A stretch of DNA of 64,000 nt from Limnothrix sp. BL-A-16 (GTDB taxonomy: Bacteria; Cyanobacteriota; Cyanobacteriia; CACIAM-69d). Position 1 is the stretch's first letter, and every line of letters starts with the position of its first letter. The DNA lies in contig CP166615.1 in assembly GCA_041937175.2 (NCBI GenBank), positions 3,584,001 to 3,648,000 of the forward strand, written 5' to 3'. The position numbers were made by a program. This document shows, one piece after another, positions 42,001 through 51,000 of the stretch.

Positions 42001-45000
42001 AAGAAAGAGAACGTATCCTTAAAGGTGTTATTCGAGATTTTGAACTAGCCCAAGCCAATCTAGAGCATCGCACTCGCGAACTAGAGGTGGCGCTGAGGGA
42101 TCTCAAGCAGTTACAAGTCAAACTAATTGAGTCTGAGAAAATGTCAGCCTTGGGTGTGCTGGTGGCTGGTGTTGCCCATGAAATCAACAATCCCATTAAC
42201 TTCATCCATGGCAATTTAACCTATATCAAAACTTACACTCAGAACCTATTAAAGCTTGTTACTGCCTATCAAAAATATGTTTCTAGCCCTATTCAGGAAT
42301 TACAAGATTTGAGGGAAGACATTGATCTTGACTTCCTGCAAGATGACATGATTAACATTCTCAGATCAATGCAAACCGGGAGTGAGCGAATTCAAAAAAT
42401 TGTGCTCTCGTTACGTAACTTCTCACGGTTAGATGAATCCAAGTTCAAAGCAGTTGATATCCACGCAGGAATGGATAATACTCTGATGATTTTGCAGCAT
42501 CGGCTTCAGGCAACTGCAACTCGTCCGGCAATTCAAGTTAGAAAACAATATGGCAACTTACCCTTAGTGGAGTGCTATGCCGGATCGCTCAATCAAGTAT
42601 TTATGAATCTGCTGAATAATGCTATTGATGCGATTGAAGAATCCAATCAAGTCTGTACTGATCAAGAAATGCAGCATAGTTCTCATGCAATTTGGTTGCG
42701 CACGGAAGTTAATGATCAAGATCAAATTAAAATTACGATCGCTGATAATGGTCAAGGAATTCCTGAAGAGGTGCGATCGCGTATTTTTGACCCCTTCTTT
42801 ACAACGAAACCCGTCGGTAAGGGTACAGGTTTGGGACTTTCCATTAGCTATCAAATTATTACTGAAAAACATAAGGGTAAACTCTACTGTCATTCAACAA
42901 GAGGAGCAGGCACGGAGTTTATGATTGAAATTCCAGTGCGGCAACAGTCCCCAACCTCTCGATGATGCAATAGCGCTGTATAGAAGCCAAGACAACTGAG
43001 GTGATGATTAATGACTACACGGCAACTCGACCCTAAACTGCAATCTCGATTAGGCATTACCCCAAAGCAGCTTGCTGACTTTTGCCAACGATGGAAAGTT
43101 GTTGAACTCGCGCTCTTTGGCTCGGTTCTCAGAGATGATTTTTCCGTGAATAGCGATGTGGATTTTTTGGTCAAATTTAGCCCTCATCATTCTTGGGGTT
43201 TAGAATTTATTCAAATGCGAGAAGAATTGGCAGTGCTCTTGCAACGCCCAGTGGATTTATTGACTCATCAAAGCGTTATGAATAGTCATAATACCCTCCG
43301 TCGTCAGGCTATTTTAGATTCGGCAGAGGTCATTTATGCAGCGAGATAAGCAGACATTAATAGATATTTCTACAGCGATTCAGCAAGCATTGCTGTATTC
43401 TCAAGGGATTGATCAAGATAGTTTGAAGCAAGATGACGAGAAGCAAGCTGCTATTTTATATCGACTCATTATCATTGGAGAAGCGACTAAACGTCTATCT
43501 AATGAATTTCGTGATCAATATCCAATGATTCCTTGGCGGCAAATGGCTGGCTTGAGAGATGTTGTGATCCATGATTACGATGAATTAGACTTTGATATTC
43601 TCTGGAACGTAGTTCACCTCAACTTGCCTGATATGCTGCCCAAAATTCAAGCAATTCTAGAAAGTTATGACAGCTAGGGCGATCGCGCTACCTATCGAAC
43701 TACCCATGGAGAAGGTCACTGAGTTTTGTCACAAGTGGCAAGTAACAGAGTTTGCCCTTTTCGGCTCTGTCCTTCGCGACGATTTTCGCCCCGACAGCGA
43801 CATCGATATTATGGTGGAGTTTGATCCAGCGGCCTGCCCCACTTTCAGCACCTTAGACCGTATGGAAGCGGAGCTGAACATTATTTTTGGTCGCGATATT
43901 GATCTAATTACCCGCCAAGGGATTGCCAGCAGTCGAAACTATCTACGCCGCCACGAAATCCTGTCTTCTGCCCAGGTGATTTATGCCACGGGATCTTCAA
44001 TTCCTGCTTGACATGTTGCAATCCGCAGAGCTGATCTTGACCTACACTGCTCAATGCTCGAAGGATGAATTTATTGCAAATGTACAACTGCAAGATTCAG
44101 TGATTCGGCGGCTATTGGTGATTGCTGAGGCTGCAAGACGGATTTCCAAAAATACTTGGCAGTCGTTACCGAATATCTCTTGGCAAGAAATTCATGGAAT
44201 GCGAAATTGGTTAGTGCATGACAGCGATCAATCTGCATTATCTCCTGATCGTGACCTCGTCTTGCTCAAGATAGCAGCTAGTGATCGCAGTACAAAACCC
44301 TACTGAGAGAAGTTATCTTACTATTTATGGTTTCATGCACAAACATGTGCATAATCATACCAAACAAGTAATTATCATAAGAATGATTGATTTTGTCTTT
44401 CTGAAGTTGTTAGGCTCACCGTATTGATTTTTCCCACCAACCTAACAAAGGATGATTCCTGTGTGGTTTGTATCTTCCTTTAGCTCGTATAGACTTAAGC
44501 ACAGCACATAATTCATCCAGACTAAGATTGTCTTTGTCTGACCAAGCTTTAATTATTTCTAAAGTTGATAGAACTTGTAAATGATTCGCTTCCTTTTGAG
44601 AGAATGAAATTGCTTTTTTGTCATCAGTAGCAATTGCCCATCCTCGACTAATCGCAATGGCACAAGTTGCAGATTCTCCATCATCACCTAGCTCAAAAGT
44701 GTAGTTTACAAATGCCTCTTCCTCAGACTCCGACTCAAAATCTACTACTGAAAGAAGTCCCTGTGCGATAGCTGTTTCAAACTGAACTGCACCTTCATTA
44801 TTCTCATTTGTAAGGCGTTGAAGAGTTATAAGTTCCTTGTTTTTCACAACTTCAGTAACTACAACTTGAGCAGGTATAGATTTCAAAATTTCAATGAAAT
44901 ACTCCGAAGCGCAAAAGTTCAGGATGCAACAAGCGTCAAGAACTATATGGGAGTGTCTAATTTGCATCATCAATCTCCCTACTTTTCTACGCTTGACACA

Positions 45001-48000: not shown

Positions 48001-51000
48001 TGCACCAACTTATCAAAATTCATACTCAAATCAGCATAGTCTCTTGACCCAAGTTCGTTGCTTGAAGTAAGAGCTTGATCAAGCATGTCTGCCATACTTT
48101 GACAAAGCCTGATAGGAAGATCACCTTTTTGAATTAAGTCTCTTTTAAGAGACTCCAGTAAAGCCCGAGAGCATTCATCGCTAGTTGCATTTCCCTCGCA
48201 AAGCCATTTGTATGGCCGCTGGTAAAGCGTTCTGAGCCGGTTATGAACAATATCTCCATCGGGCATAGCAGAACCTTTGTTGGTTAGAGTTTGTTTCCAA
48301 TATCAAGGTAGCTCGTGTTTCTGACATTGTCAATTGCTAGCATTGATTTTTAGAAAAAATGTCAGAACTGGGGAGCGTGCAGGGGTCAAAATGGTTTTTG
48401 CGAGAAAAGCCAACTTTAAAATCACTTTTTGGGAAATTTTCATATTCTCACTTGAAGAACAATATGCATAACATATACACTTGGCTCCTGAAAGGCAGTT
48501 TGTTATACGATTGGGGCGGACTGCGGCAGGTGATAGACATTGCTAGATGGCAAAGCGTGGGCTACTGCCGTTAGAAGCTTTTGTCTCTTTTAGGAGACAG
48601 TCCTATCTAGACCCGTTGCTCAATTATTCGACACAAAAGGGGCTGAGCAAATGCTCAGCCCCTGGTCATTTAGATAGGAATTGTGACTACGCTGTGAAGT
48701 ACTTCGCGATCGGGTGGTAGGCAATAATCGCCGTCGTGGACTGCTCTGGATAGAGCTGCTCGCTCTCGTCCATATACATGTTGATTCGATCGGTTTGCAA
48801 CAACTGCAACTGAATCAACTGATCCTGAATATTCGGACAAGCCGGATAGCCAAAGCTATAGCGTGACCCCTGATAGCGTTGCGCCAAAATGTCCCGCAAA
48901 TTGTCCGGCTCCTGCGCACCAAACCCCAACTCCCGCCGGATGCGCGCGTGCGTCCATTCCGCCAGCCCTTCCGCCGTTTGCACCGCCATCCCGTGGAAGT
49001 ACAAATAATCGGAATATTGATTCGCCCCAAACAGCTTTTGGGCATATTCCGTGGCAACTTCGCCCACCGTCACCGCCTGCATTGGAAACACATCAAAGAT
49101 GCCCAACTCCTTCGGTGCAAAGAAATCGGCAATGCAAAGACGACGCAACGATCCTTGGCGCGGAAATTCCAATTGGGCGATCGGCTCTAGGTTGGTTTGC
49201 CCCGCGCTGACCGCTTCCGGATCGTAGATATAGAGCGTATTCCCCTCCGAATTGCAGGGAAAATAGCCATAGATCACTTGCGGTTGCAGCAGGTTTTCCG
49301 CGATCACTTTCGCCTTCCATTCCGCCAAAATCGGCCGCACTTTCGCATCAATAAAGGCATCATAATCGGCGCGCGATTGCTCCTTGGGTTTGCGGAATTG
49401 CCATTGCCCCACAAACAACGCTTGCAAGTCGAGATAGTTGAAAATTTCCTCGATCGCAATGTCCGCCGGGTTCAACAATTGGGTTCCCCAGAACGGCGGT
49501 TGGGGGCGATCGATATTCGGGTCAACCGCTTCCGATCGCCGCGTATCAATCACCTTCGGTTTCTCGGCCTTGGCGGGTTTCTCAGCCCCATCATCACCGT
49601 CGGTCTTAGCTTGGCCATAGCGCCCCAATGCCGCCGGATCATCGGCAAATTCCCCTAAAAAGCCCTCAGAATCGTCCCATTTTTCAGCGGCTTTCGCGGG
49701 CATCAACTTATCCATAAAGCTGAGATCCGAGAAGGCATCTTTGCCATAGATCACCCGACCGCGATAGGTCTTTTGGCAATCCTCATAGACAAATTTCGGC
49801 GTGAGGGCCGCACCGCCCAAAATCACAGGCACGGTGATGCCGCGATCGTTGAAGGTCTCCAGATTTTCCTTCATGAACGCCGTGGATTTCACCAACAAAC
49901 CGCTCATGGCAATGCAATCGGGTTTGTGTTGCTCATAGGCATCAATGATATTTTCCACAGGCTGTTTAATGCCCAGATTAATCACCCGATAGCCATTGTT
50001 GGTGAGGATAATATCCACCAGGTTTTTGCCAATGTCATGCACATCGCCCTTGACCGTAGCGATCACGAAAGTGCCCTTGGCGTTGTTGCTGGTTTCGGAT
50101 TTCTCCATGTGCGGCTCCAAAAAGGCCACCGCCGCTTTCATGGTTTCCGCCGACTGCAACACAAAGGGCAACTGCATTTGACCTGACGCAAACAATTCGC
50201 CCACCACCTTCATCCCATCTAACAGATAGGTGTTGATGATTTCCAGCGGGGGATATTGGGTCATGGCCTGCTGCAAGATTGTTTCGAGGCCCAGCCGTTC
50301 GCCGTCGATAATGTGGCGTTTGAGCTTCTCTTCCAAGGAGAGATTTTCATCCACGCCCGCCGCTTTTTTGGTAGTGGCTCCTTCAAAGAGCTGCGTCAGT
50401 TCAGTTAGGGGATCATAAACACAAACATCCCCCTCAAACCGGCGACGATCGAAGATCAAATCCCGGCAGACTTCCTGATGTGCTGGCTCAATTTTAGCCA
50501 GGGGCAAAATCTTGGCGGCACTGACGATCGAGGAGTCCATTCCCACTTGCATACATTCATGCAGGAACATGGAGTTCAACACCTGCCGCGCCGCCGGATT
50601 CAGACCAAAGGAGATATTGGAAACGCCGAGCAAAATGTGGCAGCCGGGTAGGTTTTCCCGAATCAGTCGAATCGATTCGATCGTGGCGGCTCCGTTTTTG
50701 CGGTCTTCTTCAATCCCGGTGGAAATCGGCAGAGCCAGGGTATCGAAGAAGATTTCATGGGCAGGAATCCCAAACTCCACCGCCTGCCGATAGGCCCGCT
50801 GGGCGATCGCGAATTTCTTCTCGGCGGTGCGGGCCATGCCGTCTTCATCGATCGTCCCGATCACCACCCCAGCGCCGTAGGTTTTCGCCAGTTCCAGCAC
50901 TTTCAAAAAGCGCTCTTCACCATCTTCATAGTTGGTGGAATTTAGCAAACATTTGCCGCCGGCCACTTTCAAACCGGCTTCCATTTTTTGCCATTCCGTG

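Follow-up and report, generated by a model that had tools for sequence, protein, structure and literature searches.

A four-gene QatBC-like/HTH-M78/PIN operon of Limnothrix sp. BL-A-16, a probable conflict system with a Rosmer-like core

Introduction

The CapH/CapP, ImmR/ImmA and DdrO/IrrE systems are repressor-peptidase switches, each composed of an HTH repressor and an M78 peptidase. QatABCD is an anti-phage system, reportedly described by Gao et al. in 2020. Later work shows that QatBC by itself protects against lambda-vir, with the N-terminus of QatB entering the active site of QatC (PMC13279940, PMC13376578), and that QatB binds to the nuclease QatD as well (PMC13639016). In type IV CBASS, Cap9-CdnD deazaguanylation involves a QueC-family enzyme that takes the N-terminal tail of its partner into the active site (10.1101/2025.04.06.647259). 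ImmA-type antitoxins have been linked to PIN-like toxins (PMC10440598), and the two-gene RosmerTA system places an HTH and M78 antitoxin-type protein beside a toxin gene (10.1101/2022.05.11.491447). Here we describe a cyanobacterial cassette in which a QatBC-like pair and a Rosmer-like pair share one operon.

Gene organization of the cassette

Four minus-strand ORFs (47634-48266, 46225-47628, 44987-46210 and 44416-45087) were found at the positions given by the first-pass annotation within the window, i.e. the whole 64,000-nt stretch of DNA that was analysed. Before correction of their starts these encode 210, 467, 407 (from TTG) and 223 aa, respectively. Comparison with orthologues reset the start of the third gene to ATG 46180 (397 aa). 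The frame 5′ of ATG 44970 in the fourth gene holds stop codons in orthologues, and a Shine-Dalgarno sequence, GGGAG, is present at 44975-44979, ahead of this ATG; this gives a PIN protein of 184 aa (44416-44970), and the previously suggested true start (M27) matches this corrected one. It lies 16 nt past the stop codon of the M78 gene. The cassette genes are tightly packed, with start and stop codons that overlap or lie a few bases apart, and have one conserved promoter and operator. The GC content over the cassette is 0.39-0.44, compared with 0.52-0.62 in the MetH-side flank. Features of the locus are summarized in Table 1.

Table 1. Features of the cassette and its upstream region (positions within the window)
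Feature	Position	Strand	Description
Intrinsic-terminator-like hairpin after metH	48638..48663	-	stem of eleven pairs, 8 of them GC, then a T run
Upstream half-site CTGACA	48360..48365	-	about 32 nt 5′ of the palindrome
Palindrome TGACA-A-TGTCA	48322..48332	.	overlaps a TTGACA -35-like box; lies 66 nt 5′ of the QatB-like ATG; putative HTH operator
QatB-like gene	47634..48266	-	210 aa, all-helical; disordered N-terminal tail MPDGD, coil-like C-terminal tail
QatC-like QueC-family PP-loop enzyme	46225..47628	-	467 aa; start 6 nt past the QatB-like stop codon
HTH_3 + Peptidase_M78 (ImmA/IrrE), RmrA type	44987..46180	-	397 aa from ATG 46180; putative antitoxin and autorepressor
PIN/VapC-fold nuclease	44416..44970	-	184 aa from ATG 44970; putative toxin/effector

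The operon shares with QatABCD (PMC13279940, PMC13376578 and PMC13639016) a QatC-type enzyme that is extended at both termini and carries an ATP-binding loop and four zinc cysteines; a small helical partner, encoded just ahead of it, whose N-terminal tail is conserved and flexible; and a nuclease. Unlike QatABCD, it lacks QatA (KAP NTPase) and QatD (TatD), and it has a PIN protein as nuclease and an additional HTH-M78 protein. The absence of QatA and QatD, claimed earlier, was borne out by a Pfam scan of the neighbour genes at the locus, in which neither was seen; neither is present among the genes common to 15 compared loci, which comprise only the four cassette genes.

The QatC-like and QatB-like proteins

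Assignment of the second gene as QatC-type is supported by its match to the PADLOC QatC model (2.8e-44, residues 57-378), which reproduces the earlier score and is far better than that to the QueC model (7.6e-5); the Pfam QueC match reaches 5.5e-7. The P. aeruginosa QatC structure 9zee_B matches this protein at E 2.1e-23. Source annotations call the enzyme 7-cyano-7-deazaguanine synthase, and the host carries a separate full-length canonical QueC (E 7.8e-76).

Several positions distinguish the enzyme from its QatABCD counterpart. Its PP-loop reads SGGLDA, where P. aeruginosa QatC has SGGxDS (S156, D160, S161): the first Ser (S154) is kept in 117 and Asp (D158) in all of 118 homologues, while the last Ser is replaced by Ala in 116. 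The S-x-S motif S273-R-S275 substitutes for the invariant T-x-T of QatC (T278/T280), a conservative change; of the 118 sequences, 99 have Ser and 18 have Thr at its first position, and 116 have Ser at its second. At this site the alphaproteobacterial form reads YPDY, keeping a YPD-type motif like that of Cap9 and QueC (10.1101/2025.04.06.647259). Zinc cysteines C329, C340, C343 and C346 (C..CGxCxxC) and T306-K307 are present in 118/118 homologues, and SGGLDA, S-R-S and E253-N254-G255 in 116-118 of 118. These counts show the catalytic set to be under selection. The cassette differs from type IV CBASS in lacking a CD-NTase and Cap10, in the QatC-like size of its enzyme and in having a small helical protein as partner.

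No Pfam or PADLOC family, QatB included, was matched by the product of the first gene at E ≤ 0.1, in agreement with the first-pass annotation, whereas a canonical cyanobacterial QatB gives 9e-42 with the PADLOC QatB model. The hhalign probability of relationship to QatB is 0.8%, and the partner protein, unlike that of QatABCD, shows no sequence similarity to QatB. The “QatB” label is based on a weak fold match (to the ten-helix globular domain of QatB), the gene position and an N-terminal tail whose motif is unlike that of QatB. The tail, a conserved M-x-D-G, begins MPDGD, as noted before, and not with the QatB motif MGTS and its Gly2; the canonical QatB used as a control (locus L033) starts (M)GTSKSY. 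The N-termini of 120 homologues were read. Among the 117 that are normally placed, Gly2 was found in none (99 Pro2, 14 Ala2, 2 Thr2, 1 Val2 and 1 Leu2).

The HTH-M78 protein and the PIN nuclease

The third gene product contains HTH_3 (4.2e-15) and Peptidase_M78 (1.7e-23) domains, and its previously reported PADLOC matches were obtained again: RmrA (1.8e-25 and weaker, residues 28-314), capP (1.4e-14) and capH (3.8e-8). It is unusually conserved, with 63-81% identity in 21 sequences (mean column identity 81%). Like CapH/CapP, ImmR/ImmA and DdrO/IrrE, it combines HTH and M78 peptidase parts and is associated with a palindromic operator at a conflict operon promoter. In contrast to these switches, a single chain unites HTH and peptidase and carries an additional C-terminal domain, the gene is part of the operon and neighbours that of the putative toxin, and there is no regulon beyond its own promoter. 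The HExxH motif is intact in this genome (HEYLH), but of 29 cyanobacterial cassettes that are intact, 15 have Gly in place of its catalytic Glu (HGxxH).

The PIN/VapC fold proposed for the fourth gene product was recovered with a new AF2 model (pLDDT 92.5), for which the top Foldseek rows are all PIN/VapC proteins (probability 1.00, best E 1e-3, target-normalised TM-score 0.6-0.74). Four acidic residues, numbered D37, E71, D122 and D141 in the first-pass annotation (here D12, E46, D97 and D116), had been described as invariant; this holds for D12 and D116, whereas at least 90% of 54 sequences keep E46 and D97. The earlier statement that the protein belongs to no Pfam or PADLOC family stands at E ≤ 0.1, except for two sub-threshold chance rows. 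Some homologues carry a precomputed match to PF11848 (DUF3368), which we take to be a member of the PIN clan. On the basis of the model, the protein resembles VapBC toxins in its predicted PIN fold, its four conserved acidic residues and its best structural matches, which are VapC proteins. It differs from them in having no Pfam PIN match at E ≤ 0.1 in this genome, in its greater length and in the 397-aa HTH-M78 partner that replaces a small VapB.

The third and fourth genes encode a Rosmer-like HTH-M78 and PIN pair. As in RosmerTA (10.1101/2022.05.11.491447) and ImmA-type antitoxin systems (PMC10440598), an RmrA-type protein stands beside a putative toxin gene, and the pair occurs in defence islands. 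Unlike in two-gene Rosmer, the ancestral form here shares its operon with QatB-like and QatC-like genes, and most cyanobacterial copies have HGxxH instead of HExxH.

Promoter and operator

The hairpin following metH is the upstream boundary of the operon. The palindrome within the promoter occurs once in the window (0.03 expected) and once in the whole 4.56-Mb genome. Among 45 aligned regions upstream of cassettes or their relics, 32 contain it exactly and the rest have one-mismatch forms, and conservation of the half-site columns CTGACAT is 90% or higher. The same two-site spacing was observed upstream of the M78 gene in six of nine loci without QatBC. This two-site arrangement points to putative autoregulation of the operon by the HTH domain of the HTH-M78 protein.

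Distribution and decay of the cassette

The QatC-like protein was found in 19 of 401 cyanobacterial genomes, leaving 382 without it. The order B-C-M78-PIN is kept in 13/13 fetched full-length cyanobacterial orthologue loci, the flanks of which mostly differ, and 34 further loci found via the QatB-like gene include 19 full cassettes. Cyanobacterial cassettes lie on chromosomes, and rows of the M78 tree cluster largely by host family. Most genes around the cassette, on the plasmids too, have defence or toxin-antitoxin functions. A comparison with 50,697 phage records gave no match.

All five inspected alphaproteobacterial plasmid loci have the same gene order, at 24-33% identity to the cyanobacterial form. 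The plasmid M78 protein shows 33% identity (E 6e-53), PIN a profile match probability of 96.4% (and a match to PADLOC PDC-S70 at 2e-10), and the QatC-like protein scores 4e-30 with the QatC model. Of 26 plasmid records that carry the PIN gene, 25 also have the QatC-like gene, about 1.2 kb away; 14 of the 26 are conjugative and 6 mobilizable, and cassette neighbours include AbiE, AbiJ, RelE/ParE, an Eco57I-type methylase and AAA ATPases. Since the order is maintained between differing flanks in cyanobacteria and on alphaproteobacterial plasmids, the four genes constitute one inherited unit. The QatBC clade was never found without M78-PIN (0/13 fetched full-length loci, 0/22 assessable QatC-bearing loci, 0/5 inspected plasmid loci).

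The converse is common. QatB or QatC is broken or deleted in about 25 related loci in which M78-PIN and the palindromic operator remain: a frameshift or stop codon interrupts QatB or QatC in L025, L028, L087 and L091, and internal QatBC deletions occur in L035, L072, L096, L098, L099, L104 and L106-L111. Apart from L096, which the contig end truncates, and L110, where M78 reads as shifted, all these loci retain an intact M78-PIN pair, and 11 deletion derivatives keep the pair without QatBC. The PIN gene adjoins the M78 gene, and the pair also stands without QatBC in 10 loci found via the PIN gene. Loci with and without QatBC are interspersed in the M78 tree, with 14 changes of QatBC state in a 47-row tree and 7 in a 25-row tree, at least 4 of the latter on starred branches. 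M78-PIN is thus the persistent core and the QatBC-like genes the dispensable part. The first-pass annotation had joined a QatBC core to a Rosmer-like pair and called the system QatBC-based; the QatC-type enzyme, the HTH-M78 and PIN pair and their unity were retained, but QatBC as the base was not.

Within the 401-genome sample an intact PIN gene is always found beside an intact M78 gene, while a broken PIN gene accompanies an intact M78 gene in two loci. This pattern of decay would fit PIN as a toxin held by HTH-M78. The sole exception over all loci, the MAG locus L110, has a shifted M78 gene next to an unbroken PIN match and weakens that proposal.

Proposed function and alternatives

We hypothesize, with a probability of about 0.6, that the cassette is a single operon, under a promoter of its own, that acts in conflict (probably against phages), and in which a Rosmer-like core is combined with a QatBC-like input module. 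The PIN-fold nuclease would be both toxin and effector, and would be neutralised by the fused HTH-M78 protein, whose HTH domain may repress the operon at the palindromic operator overlapping the -35 box. The divergent QatB-QatC pair would form the input module upstream of M78-PIN: by analogy with QatC and Cap9, the PP-loop enzyme may act on the conserved M-x-D-G tail of the QatB-like protein, and this event would be relayed to HTH-M78, so that the nuclease is freed and the operon de-repressed. The QatC-on-QatB step is weakened by the lack of Gly2 in the QatB-like homologues and by the Ala at the end of the PP-loop; in canonical Qat, a G2D mutation abolishes defence (PMC13279940). Because most cyanobacterial relatives carry HGxxH, proteolysis or a peptidase-dependent relay cannot be a universal step.

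A clearly less probable, though still plausible, explanation is that two independent modules travel together, a minimal QatBC defence pair that works alone and an ordinary HTH-M78/PIN toxin-antitoxin pair that only stabilises the locus or uses the common promoter, with no signal between them. QatBC alone suffices against some phages, such as lambda-vir (PMC13279940), and M78-PIN, standing alone in the 10 loci and 11 deletion derivatives described above, functions without QatBC; that QatBC is so often lost is equally compatible with independence of the two modules. However, QatBC without M78-PIN is missing from all three sets of loci, the genes are tightly packed under a single conserved promoter and operator, and a mere stabiliser should vary, whereas the same partner family is kept across two phyla despite 24-33% identity. 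Improbable, in our view, is an operon that serves a mobile element as an addiction or exclusion module, with the QatBC-like part modifying a protein for plasmid maintenance or competition between elements. Such a role would suit the conjugative and mobilizable plasmid records, the patchy distribution, the low-GC region and the persistence of M78-PIN after QatBC is lost, as expected of an addiction module, but it agrees poorly with the chromosomal cyanobacterial cassettes, an M78 tree that largely follows host family and the lack of matches in the phage records; the defence and toxin-antitoxin neighbours fit immunity equally well.

The high conservation of HTH-M78 and the annotation of the enzyme as a 7-cyano-7-deazaguanine synthase would be expected from a housekeeping stress switch of the IrrE/DdrO or ImmA/ImmR kind, with an HTH-M78 regulon and a QueC-like enzyme having a metabolic 7-deazaguanine role. 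We consider this very unlikely: the operator palindrome is unique in the genome, the gene is absent from most of the genomes sampled and plasmid-borne elsewhere, the host has its own canonical QueC, the enzyme scores far better with the QatC than with the QueC model, and E. coli QatC fails to complement a queC deletion (PMC13329287). Read as a Rosmer-like core with a QatBC-like input module, the four-gene operon may help to show what QatBC does.

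Genomic setting and gene starts

The cassette consists of four minus-strand genes encoding, in order, a QatB-like protein, a QatC-like enzyme, a helix-turn-helix protein with an M78 peptidase domain (HTH-M78) and a PIN protein. It is flanked by metH on one side and two MNT/HepT pairs on the other, and GC content is 0.39–0.44 across the cassette versus 0.52–0.62 beyond metH. The host genome comprises 4.56 Mb in two contigs, and the cassette homologues found were cyanobacterial (plasmid relatives are treated separately below). No tRNA gene was found within window positions 30000–64000, so no island border was located by that route.

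Several other genes were distinguished nearby. A FIST-domain protein and a histidine kinase are encoded inside the low-GC stretch (40682–42965, plus strand), and a 1004-aa S8 subtilase with three SLH repeats beyond metH (52639–55653, minus strand). A 71-aa ORF (48359–48574, plus strand), opposite the promoter region and without a family match, is probably spurious. HepT, VapC-type PIN or GmrSD genes also occur beside the HTH-M78 and PIN genes (M78-PIN) in other genomes.

Two gene starts were corrected with the aid of orthologues. Stop codons occur in frame 5′ of the orthologous PIN genes, whose starts read M-x-I-x-x-S-H-(I/L)-(I/V/L)-L-D. In the window, GGGAG precedes the ATG at 44970, 16 nt past the M78 stop codon, giving a protein of 184 aa; both lines of evidence bear out the later PIN start suspected in the first-pass annotation. 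The HTH-M78 protein was set to begin with MATNIL (397 aa).

Features of the cassette and its surroundings (positions within the window)
Feature	Position	Strand	Remarks
QatB-like ORF	47634–48266	-	ORF scan of the window
QatC-like ORF	46225–47628	-	ORF scan of the window
HTH-M78 ORF	44987–46210	-	ORF scan; start corrected to ATG 46180
PIN ORF	44416–45087	-	ORF scan; start corrected to ATG 44970
metH	48687–52295		upstream neighbour of the cassette
Strong terminator-like hairpin	48638–48663		at the metH end
Two tandem MNT (NTP_transf_2)/HepT pairs	43011–44306	+	convergent with the cassette
Perfect palindrome TGACA-A-TGTCA	48322–48332		overlies a -35-like box; candidate operator

Conservation of the cassette in cyanobacteria

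The QatC-like protein was matched in 19 of 401 sampled cyanobacterial genomes: 14 matches are close and full-length (including the window's own), one is partial, one is a fragment and three are distant. One of the distant copies belongs to a canonical QatABCD locus (L033; G264:C1:154235-165233) of another cyanobacterium. There, QatD lies on the opposite strand and adjoins genes for a type I restriction enzyme and a PD-(D/E)xK protein (PDC-S02).

The order QatB-like, QatC-like, HTH-M78, PIN, with tight spacing, was found in all 13 fetched cyanobacterial orthologue loci, in agreement with the single four-gene cassette proposed earlier; the genes form one operon unit. Clustering of the ORFs from 15 loci left the four cassette genes as the sole clusters common to all, and the flanks differ except in three loci from one genus. 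Identity to the window proteins is 69–81% for M78, 54–62% for QatC-like, 49–62% for PIN and 32–52% for QatB-like. A search with the QatB-like alignment, taking one genome per species, revealed 34 loci in named cyanobacteria (four at the same places as loci fetched earlier), 19 of them with the full cassette. One wastewater metatranscriptome run yielded three contigs (161–287 nt) over parts of the QatC-like gene, the QatB-like gene and the upstream region, which is not evidence of transcription.

The QatC-like enzyme and its tailed partner

The second gene product matches the PADLOC QatC model at 2.8e-44 versus only 7.6e-5 for QueC, reproducing its previous assignment as a QatC-type enzyme. It also matches the solved QatC chains of P. 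aeruginosa (E 2.1e-23) and E. coli (E 5.6e-22), and a separate full-length QueC (E 7.8e-76) is encoded elsewhere in the host genome. Comparison with the residues named in the Results of PMC13279940 revealed that D61 (D63 in the numbering of that paper), R227/R229/F233, E253-N254-G255 and T306-K307 are retained, and the four zinc cysteines are present in 118/118 homologues. Unlike canonical QatC, the enzyme has SGGLDA instead of SGGMDS in its PP-loop, and the invariant T278-x-T280 is replaced by S273-R-S275. Both features are fixed across the QatC-like family: among the 118 homologues S154 occurs in 117, D158 in all and A159 in 116, while position 273 is Ser in 99 and Thr in 18, and S275 is kept in 116.

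The homology of the first gene product to QatB is weak. It has no Pfam or PADLOC family match and no sequence match in the PDB, and its profile aligned with canonical cyanobacterial QatB at a probability of 0.8%. Seven helices make up the predicted structure (pLDDT 87.3), with a disordered stretch at the N-terminus and a tail resembling coil at the C-terminus; Foldseek returned nothing for it, a wider structure comparison against the PDB gave only short helical matches, and the best ESM Atlas score (0.82) was at chance level.

The N-terminal tail is the distinctive part of this protein. Of 120 homologues, 99 begin with MPDGD and 14 with MADGD; in the remainder, position 2 is Thr in two, Val in one and Leu in one, two are called longer with an internal MPDGD, and one is truncated. 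M1, D3, G4 and D5 are invariant among 75 aligned sequences, and in some loci a GTG start still gives M-DGD. As already noted in the first-pass annotation, the tail is MPDGD rather than MG, and Gly2 was not found among the 120 homologues read; the canonical QatB of L033 starts (M)GTSKSY. The tail is thus conserved, but its motif differs from that of QatB.

Conserved residues also occur at the C-termini. In the alignment of QatB-like proteins, residues 185–210 are predicted to be coil, yet P193, D202, L203, E205 and L207 are conserved ('IDLDENLL'). The first-gene proteins of plasmid loci L114–L119 end in G-[LV]-D-[QD]-G, and (F/L)DL(R/C)Q is conserved at the C-terminal end of HTH-M78. These ends may be short binding motifs.

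The HTH-M78 and PIN proteins

The third gene product combines Pfam domains HTH_3 and Peptidase_M78, and matches 14 RmrA models (best 1.8e-25) as well as capP and capH. The PIN protein has no Pfam or PADLOC family match and no match in phage records. Its model (pLDDT 92.5) gave exclusively PIN/VapC proteins among the top Foldseek rows (probability 1.00, best E 1e-3); among 54 sequences the acidic residues D12 and D116 are invariant, and E46 and D97 are kept in at least 90%. The PIN/VapC fold originally assigned to the fourth gene is thereby upheld.

Promoter and predicted operator

The sequence TTGACAATGTCAG, a perfect palindrome (TGACA-A-TGTCA) over a -35-like box, is located 66 nt 5′ of the QatB-like ATG, and a CTGACA half-site lies approximately 32 nt 5′ of the palindrome. 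Among 45 regions upstream of cassettes or their relics, 32 carry the palindrome exactly and the other 13 carry one-mismatch forms; conservation of the CTGACAT columns in the alignment of these regions is at least 90%. In the window the exact palindrome is found once (0.03 expected), as it is in the whole genome. This conservation and singularity support one operon promoter and putative autoregulation through the HTH domain, and they speak against a wider regulon.

An inverted repeat, CTCCGAG..CGGAGG, is conserved in the 5′ leader of the orthologous QatB-like genes (approximately 48267–48300 in the window, where it is weaker). Its 3′ arm contains the Shine-Dalgarno sequence GGAGG, and the repeat could keep the first gene's ribosome-binding site covered.

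Repeated loss of QatBC

The PIN protein was matched in 28 of the same 401 genomes, and ten loci of this set carry M78-PIN without a QatC-like gene. The palindrome and half-site described above are both kept ahead of M78 in six of nine QatBC-less loci (L067–L070, L074 and L075), so these stand-alone M78-PIN pairs derive from cassettes by deletion. Remnants of the lost genes are also visible: L067 retains codons for VDGDVLHR, the first 35–40 QatB-like codons are fused ahead of M78 in L072, and QatB residues 1–48 are fused to QatC residues 271–465 in L035. In L074 and L075 a broken PIN gene lies next to an intact M78 gene.

Other loci show further damage, with frameshifts and in-frame stops read as assembled, many loci being MAGs and related genomes not being independent samples. 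The QatB-like gene is shifted in L025 and has an in-frame stop in L028, and the QatC-like gene is shifted in L087 and L091; L092 stops at a contig edge. Internal deletions that spare the 5′ end of the QatB-like gene are seen in eleven loci (L096, L098, L099, L104 and L106–L112), nine of which keep M78-PIN; L096 is cut by a contig end and M78 reads shifted in L110. This MAG locus, with M78 in two frames, is the exception to the rule that an intact PIN gene always has an intact M78 gene beside it, and may reflect an assembly error.

In a 25-row M78 tree, cassette and stand-alone forms are interspersed, with seven label changes, at least four of them forced by starred branches; 14 changes of the QatBC state are required in a 47-row tree. 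Because QatBC was lost repeatedly with M78-PIN kept, the QatBC-like pair is not needed to hold the PIN protein harmless. Such a pattern would be expected of a toxin-antitoxin core that has a dispensable accessory, and it overturns the view of a system based on QatBC: M78-PIN is the core.

Related cassettes on alphaproteobacterial plasmids

When plasmids were searched by tblastn with the QatC-like protein, most matches were canonical qatC, but two records differed (81% query cover, 24% identity). Pannonibacter plasmid p.BB_2 encodes, in order and with overlapping junctions, a 187-aa protein, a 457-aa QueC-like protein (QatC model, 4e-30), a 394-aa HTH protein (RmrA 2e-21; 33% identity to the window M78, E 6e-53) and a 192-aa relative of PIN (hhalign probability 96.4%; PADLOC PDC-S70, 2e-10). 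Its neighbours are RelE/ParE, an AAA ATPase and an Eco57I-type methylase. The first protein shows no similarity to the QatB-like profile (0.5% probability); it starts MSDGPH, and the N-terminal M-x-D-G is the sole feature shared with QatB-like.

The same four genes are present on plasmids of Methylocystis (QatC-like gene annotated as shortened), A. radiobacter (pAoF64/95), S. chiapasense (pB) and R. leguminosarum, and the first-gene proteins of these four begin MSDGPH or MTDGPF. The QatC-like gene lies approximately 1.2 kb from the PIN gene in 25 of the 26 plasmid records that carry PIN, the exception being a Microvirga record; a Mesorhizobium plasmid record has only the C-terminal half of QatC-like. 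The plasmid enzymes have the PP-loop S-[DN]-G-x-D-S and the substrate-site stretch YPDY, resembling the YPD of QueC and Cap9 (motif names as in section 7 of PMC13329287). In L117 (Agrobacterium radiobacter) and L119 (Rhizobium leguminosarum) a DUF3800 gene and dinB (DNA polymerase IV) come after the cassette, and L117 has a gene for an SOS-response-associated peptidase nearby.

That the four genes stay together at such divergence, in two phyla and on both chromosomes and plasmids, speaks more strongly than any other observation for their working together.

State of the peptidase motif

The M78 motif HExxH reads HEYLH in the window. Its middle residue is Glu in 11, Asp in two and Gly in 15 of 29 intact cyanobacterial cassettes (one unread), compared with Gly in 22 and Glu in two of 25 loci with QatBC broken or absent (one unread). 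H217, H221 and E244 are invariant in the M78 alignment. HGYLH is found in L025–L028, L031, L032, L035, L067–L075, L079 and others, i.e. most cyanobacterial copies, all with the zinc ligands, and such copies may be pseudo-peptidases. Gly is probably the derived state, since all five inspected plasmid copies keep HExxH. Since HGxxH is present in many members, proteolysis cannot be an obligatory step in all of them. Broken or missing QatBC genes cluster where the catalytic Glu has gone, a hint that QatBC works by way of the peptidase; on the tree the Glu/Gly state switches only some three times, giving two or three independent contrasts, too few for a statistical test of the association.

A protease-licensed form of N-terminal tagging would connect these features. 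The invariant M-x-D-G of QatB-like would be a cleavage site at which triggered M78 cuts between Asp3 and Gly4, yielding the N-terminal glycine that canonical QatB and CdnD obtain constitutively by methionine removal. Only then could the QatC-like enzyme conjugate its substrate onto QatB-like, and the tagged protein would release the PIN nuclease. If true, this would explain why the QatBC clade always comes with an M78 peptidase, why Asp-Gly never varies but residue 2 does, and why QatBC decays mainly in HGxxH lineages. On thin evidence, we regard this scheme as unlikely.

Interpretation and relation to known systems

We estimate a probability of roughly 60% that the cassette is one coupled system. 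Judging from the protein families, PIN would be a toxic nuclease and HTH-M78 its antitoxin as well as the operon repressor; the QatC-like enzyme would act on the QatB-like tail, and this event would be relayed to HTH-M78 or PIN. In canonical Qat, QatB binds not only QatC but also the QatD nuclease (section 6 of PMC13639016), so by analogy a contact of QatB-like with the PIN side is plausible.

The stand-alone M78-PIN pairs and the joint conservation of all four genes in two phyla both bear on whether two independent modules merely travel together, an explanation that we consider unlikely next to a coupled system. That the cassette serves a mobile element is less probable still; it lies on plasmids in Alphaproteobacteria and on chromosomes in cyanobacteria. 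A housekeeping switch, for which the high conservation of M78 would speak and against which the single operator in the genome stands, is very improbable.

HTH-M78 antitoxins with PIN-like toxins (PMC10440598) and QatBC as a minimal core (PMC13279940) have already been described. Only approximately 34% of QatC-cluster genes adjoin qatA or qatD (section 7 of PMC13329287), so other contexts exist, without description there; the sole neighbours of the QatC cluster given in Supplementary Table 2 of that paper are KAP_NTPase (34%) and TatD (34%). Two Qat papers do not mention M78, helix-turn-helix, neighbourhood, cyanobacteria, variant or subtype, and 'PIN' matched in them only unrelated words such as 'pink'. 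The literature searched gave no account of QatBC joined to M78-PIN (Supplemental Data 2 of PMC13329287, the full neighbourhood table, might list M78 neighbours), nor of a QatB-like partner whose tail reads M-x-D-G. In contrast to QatABCD, the cassette lacks QatA and QatD, as the first-pass annotation had stated, and also the QatB sequence family, Gly2 and T-x-T. Of the QatB-QatC core proposed there, the QatC-type enzyme stands and the QatB homology is weak, with neither the sequence family nor Gly2 present. Since several defining features are absent, we name the cassette QatBC-like and do not file it as a member of QatABCD.

The action of QatC on QatB, and the way in which it stops a phage, were left open in three structural papers of 2026 (PMC13279940, Discussion; PMC13376578, section 10; PMC13639016, section 9). 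The cassette is a natural variant in which the QatC enzyme and a tailed partner are retained and all else is swapped: the substrate-site residues (S-x-S in cyanobacteria, YPDY on plasmids) and the tail motif differ, and the places of the KAP NTPase and the TatD nuclease are taken by a peptidase-repressor and a putative PIN toxin, whose activity is easily read out. This makes it a convenient system in which to ask where the QatBC reaction sends its signal. The cassette shows that modules of the QatBC type can be paired with more than one effector set, and it gives the Rosmer-like toxin-antitoxin family a four-gene form. With QatBC lost again and again and M78-PIN kept, it is also a clear natural case of a putative defence operon decaying to its addictive core.
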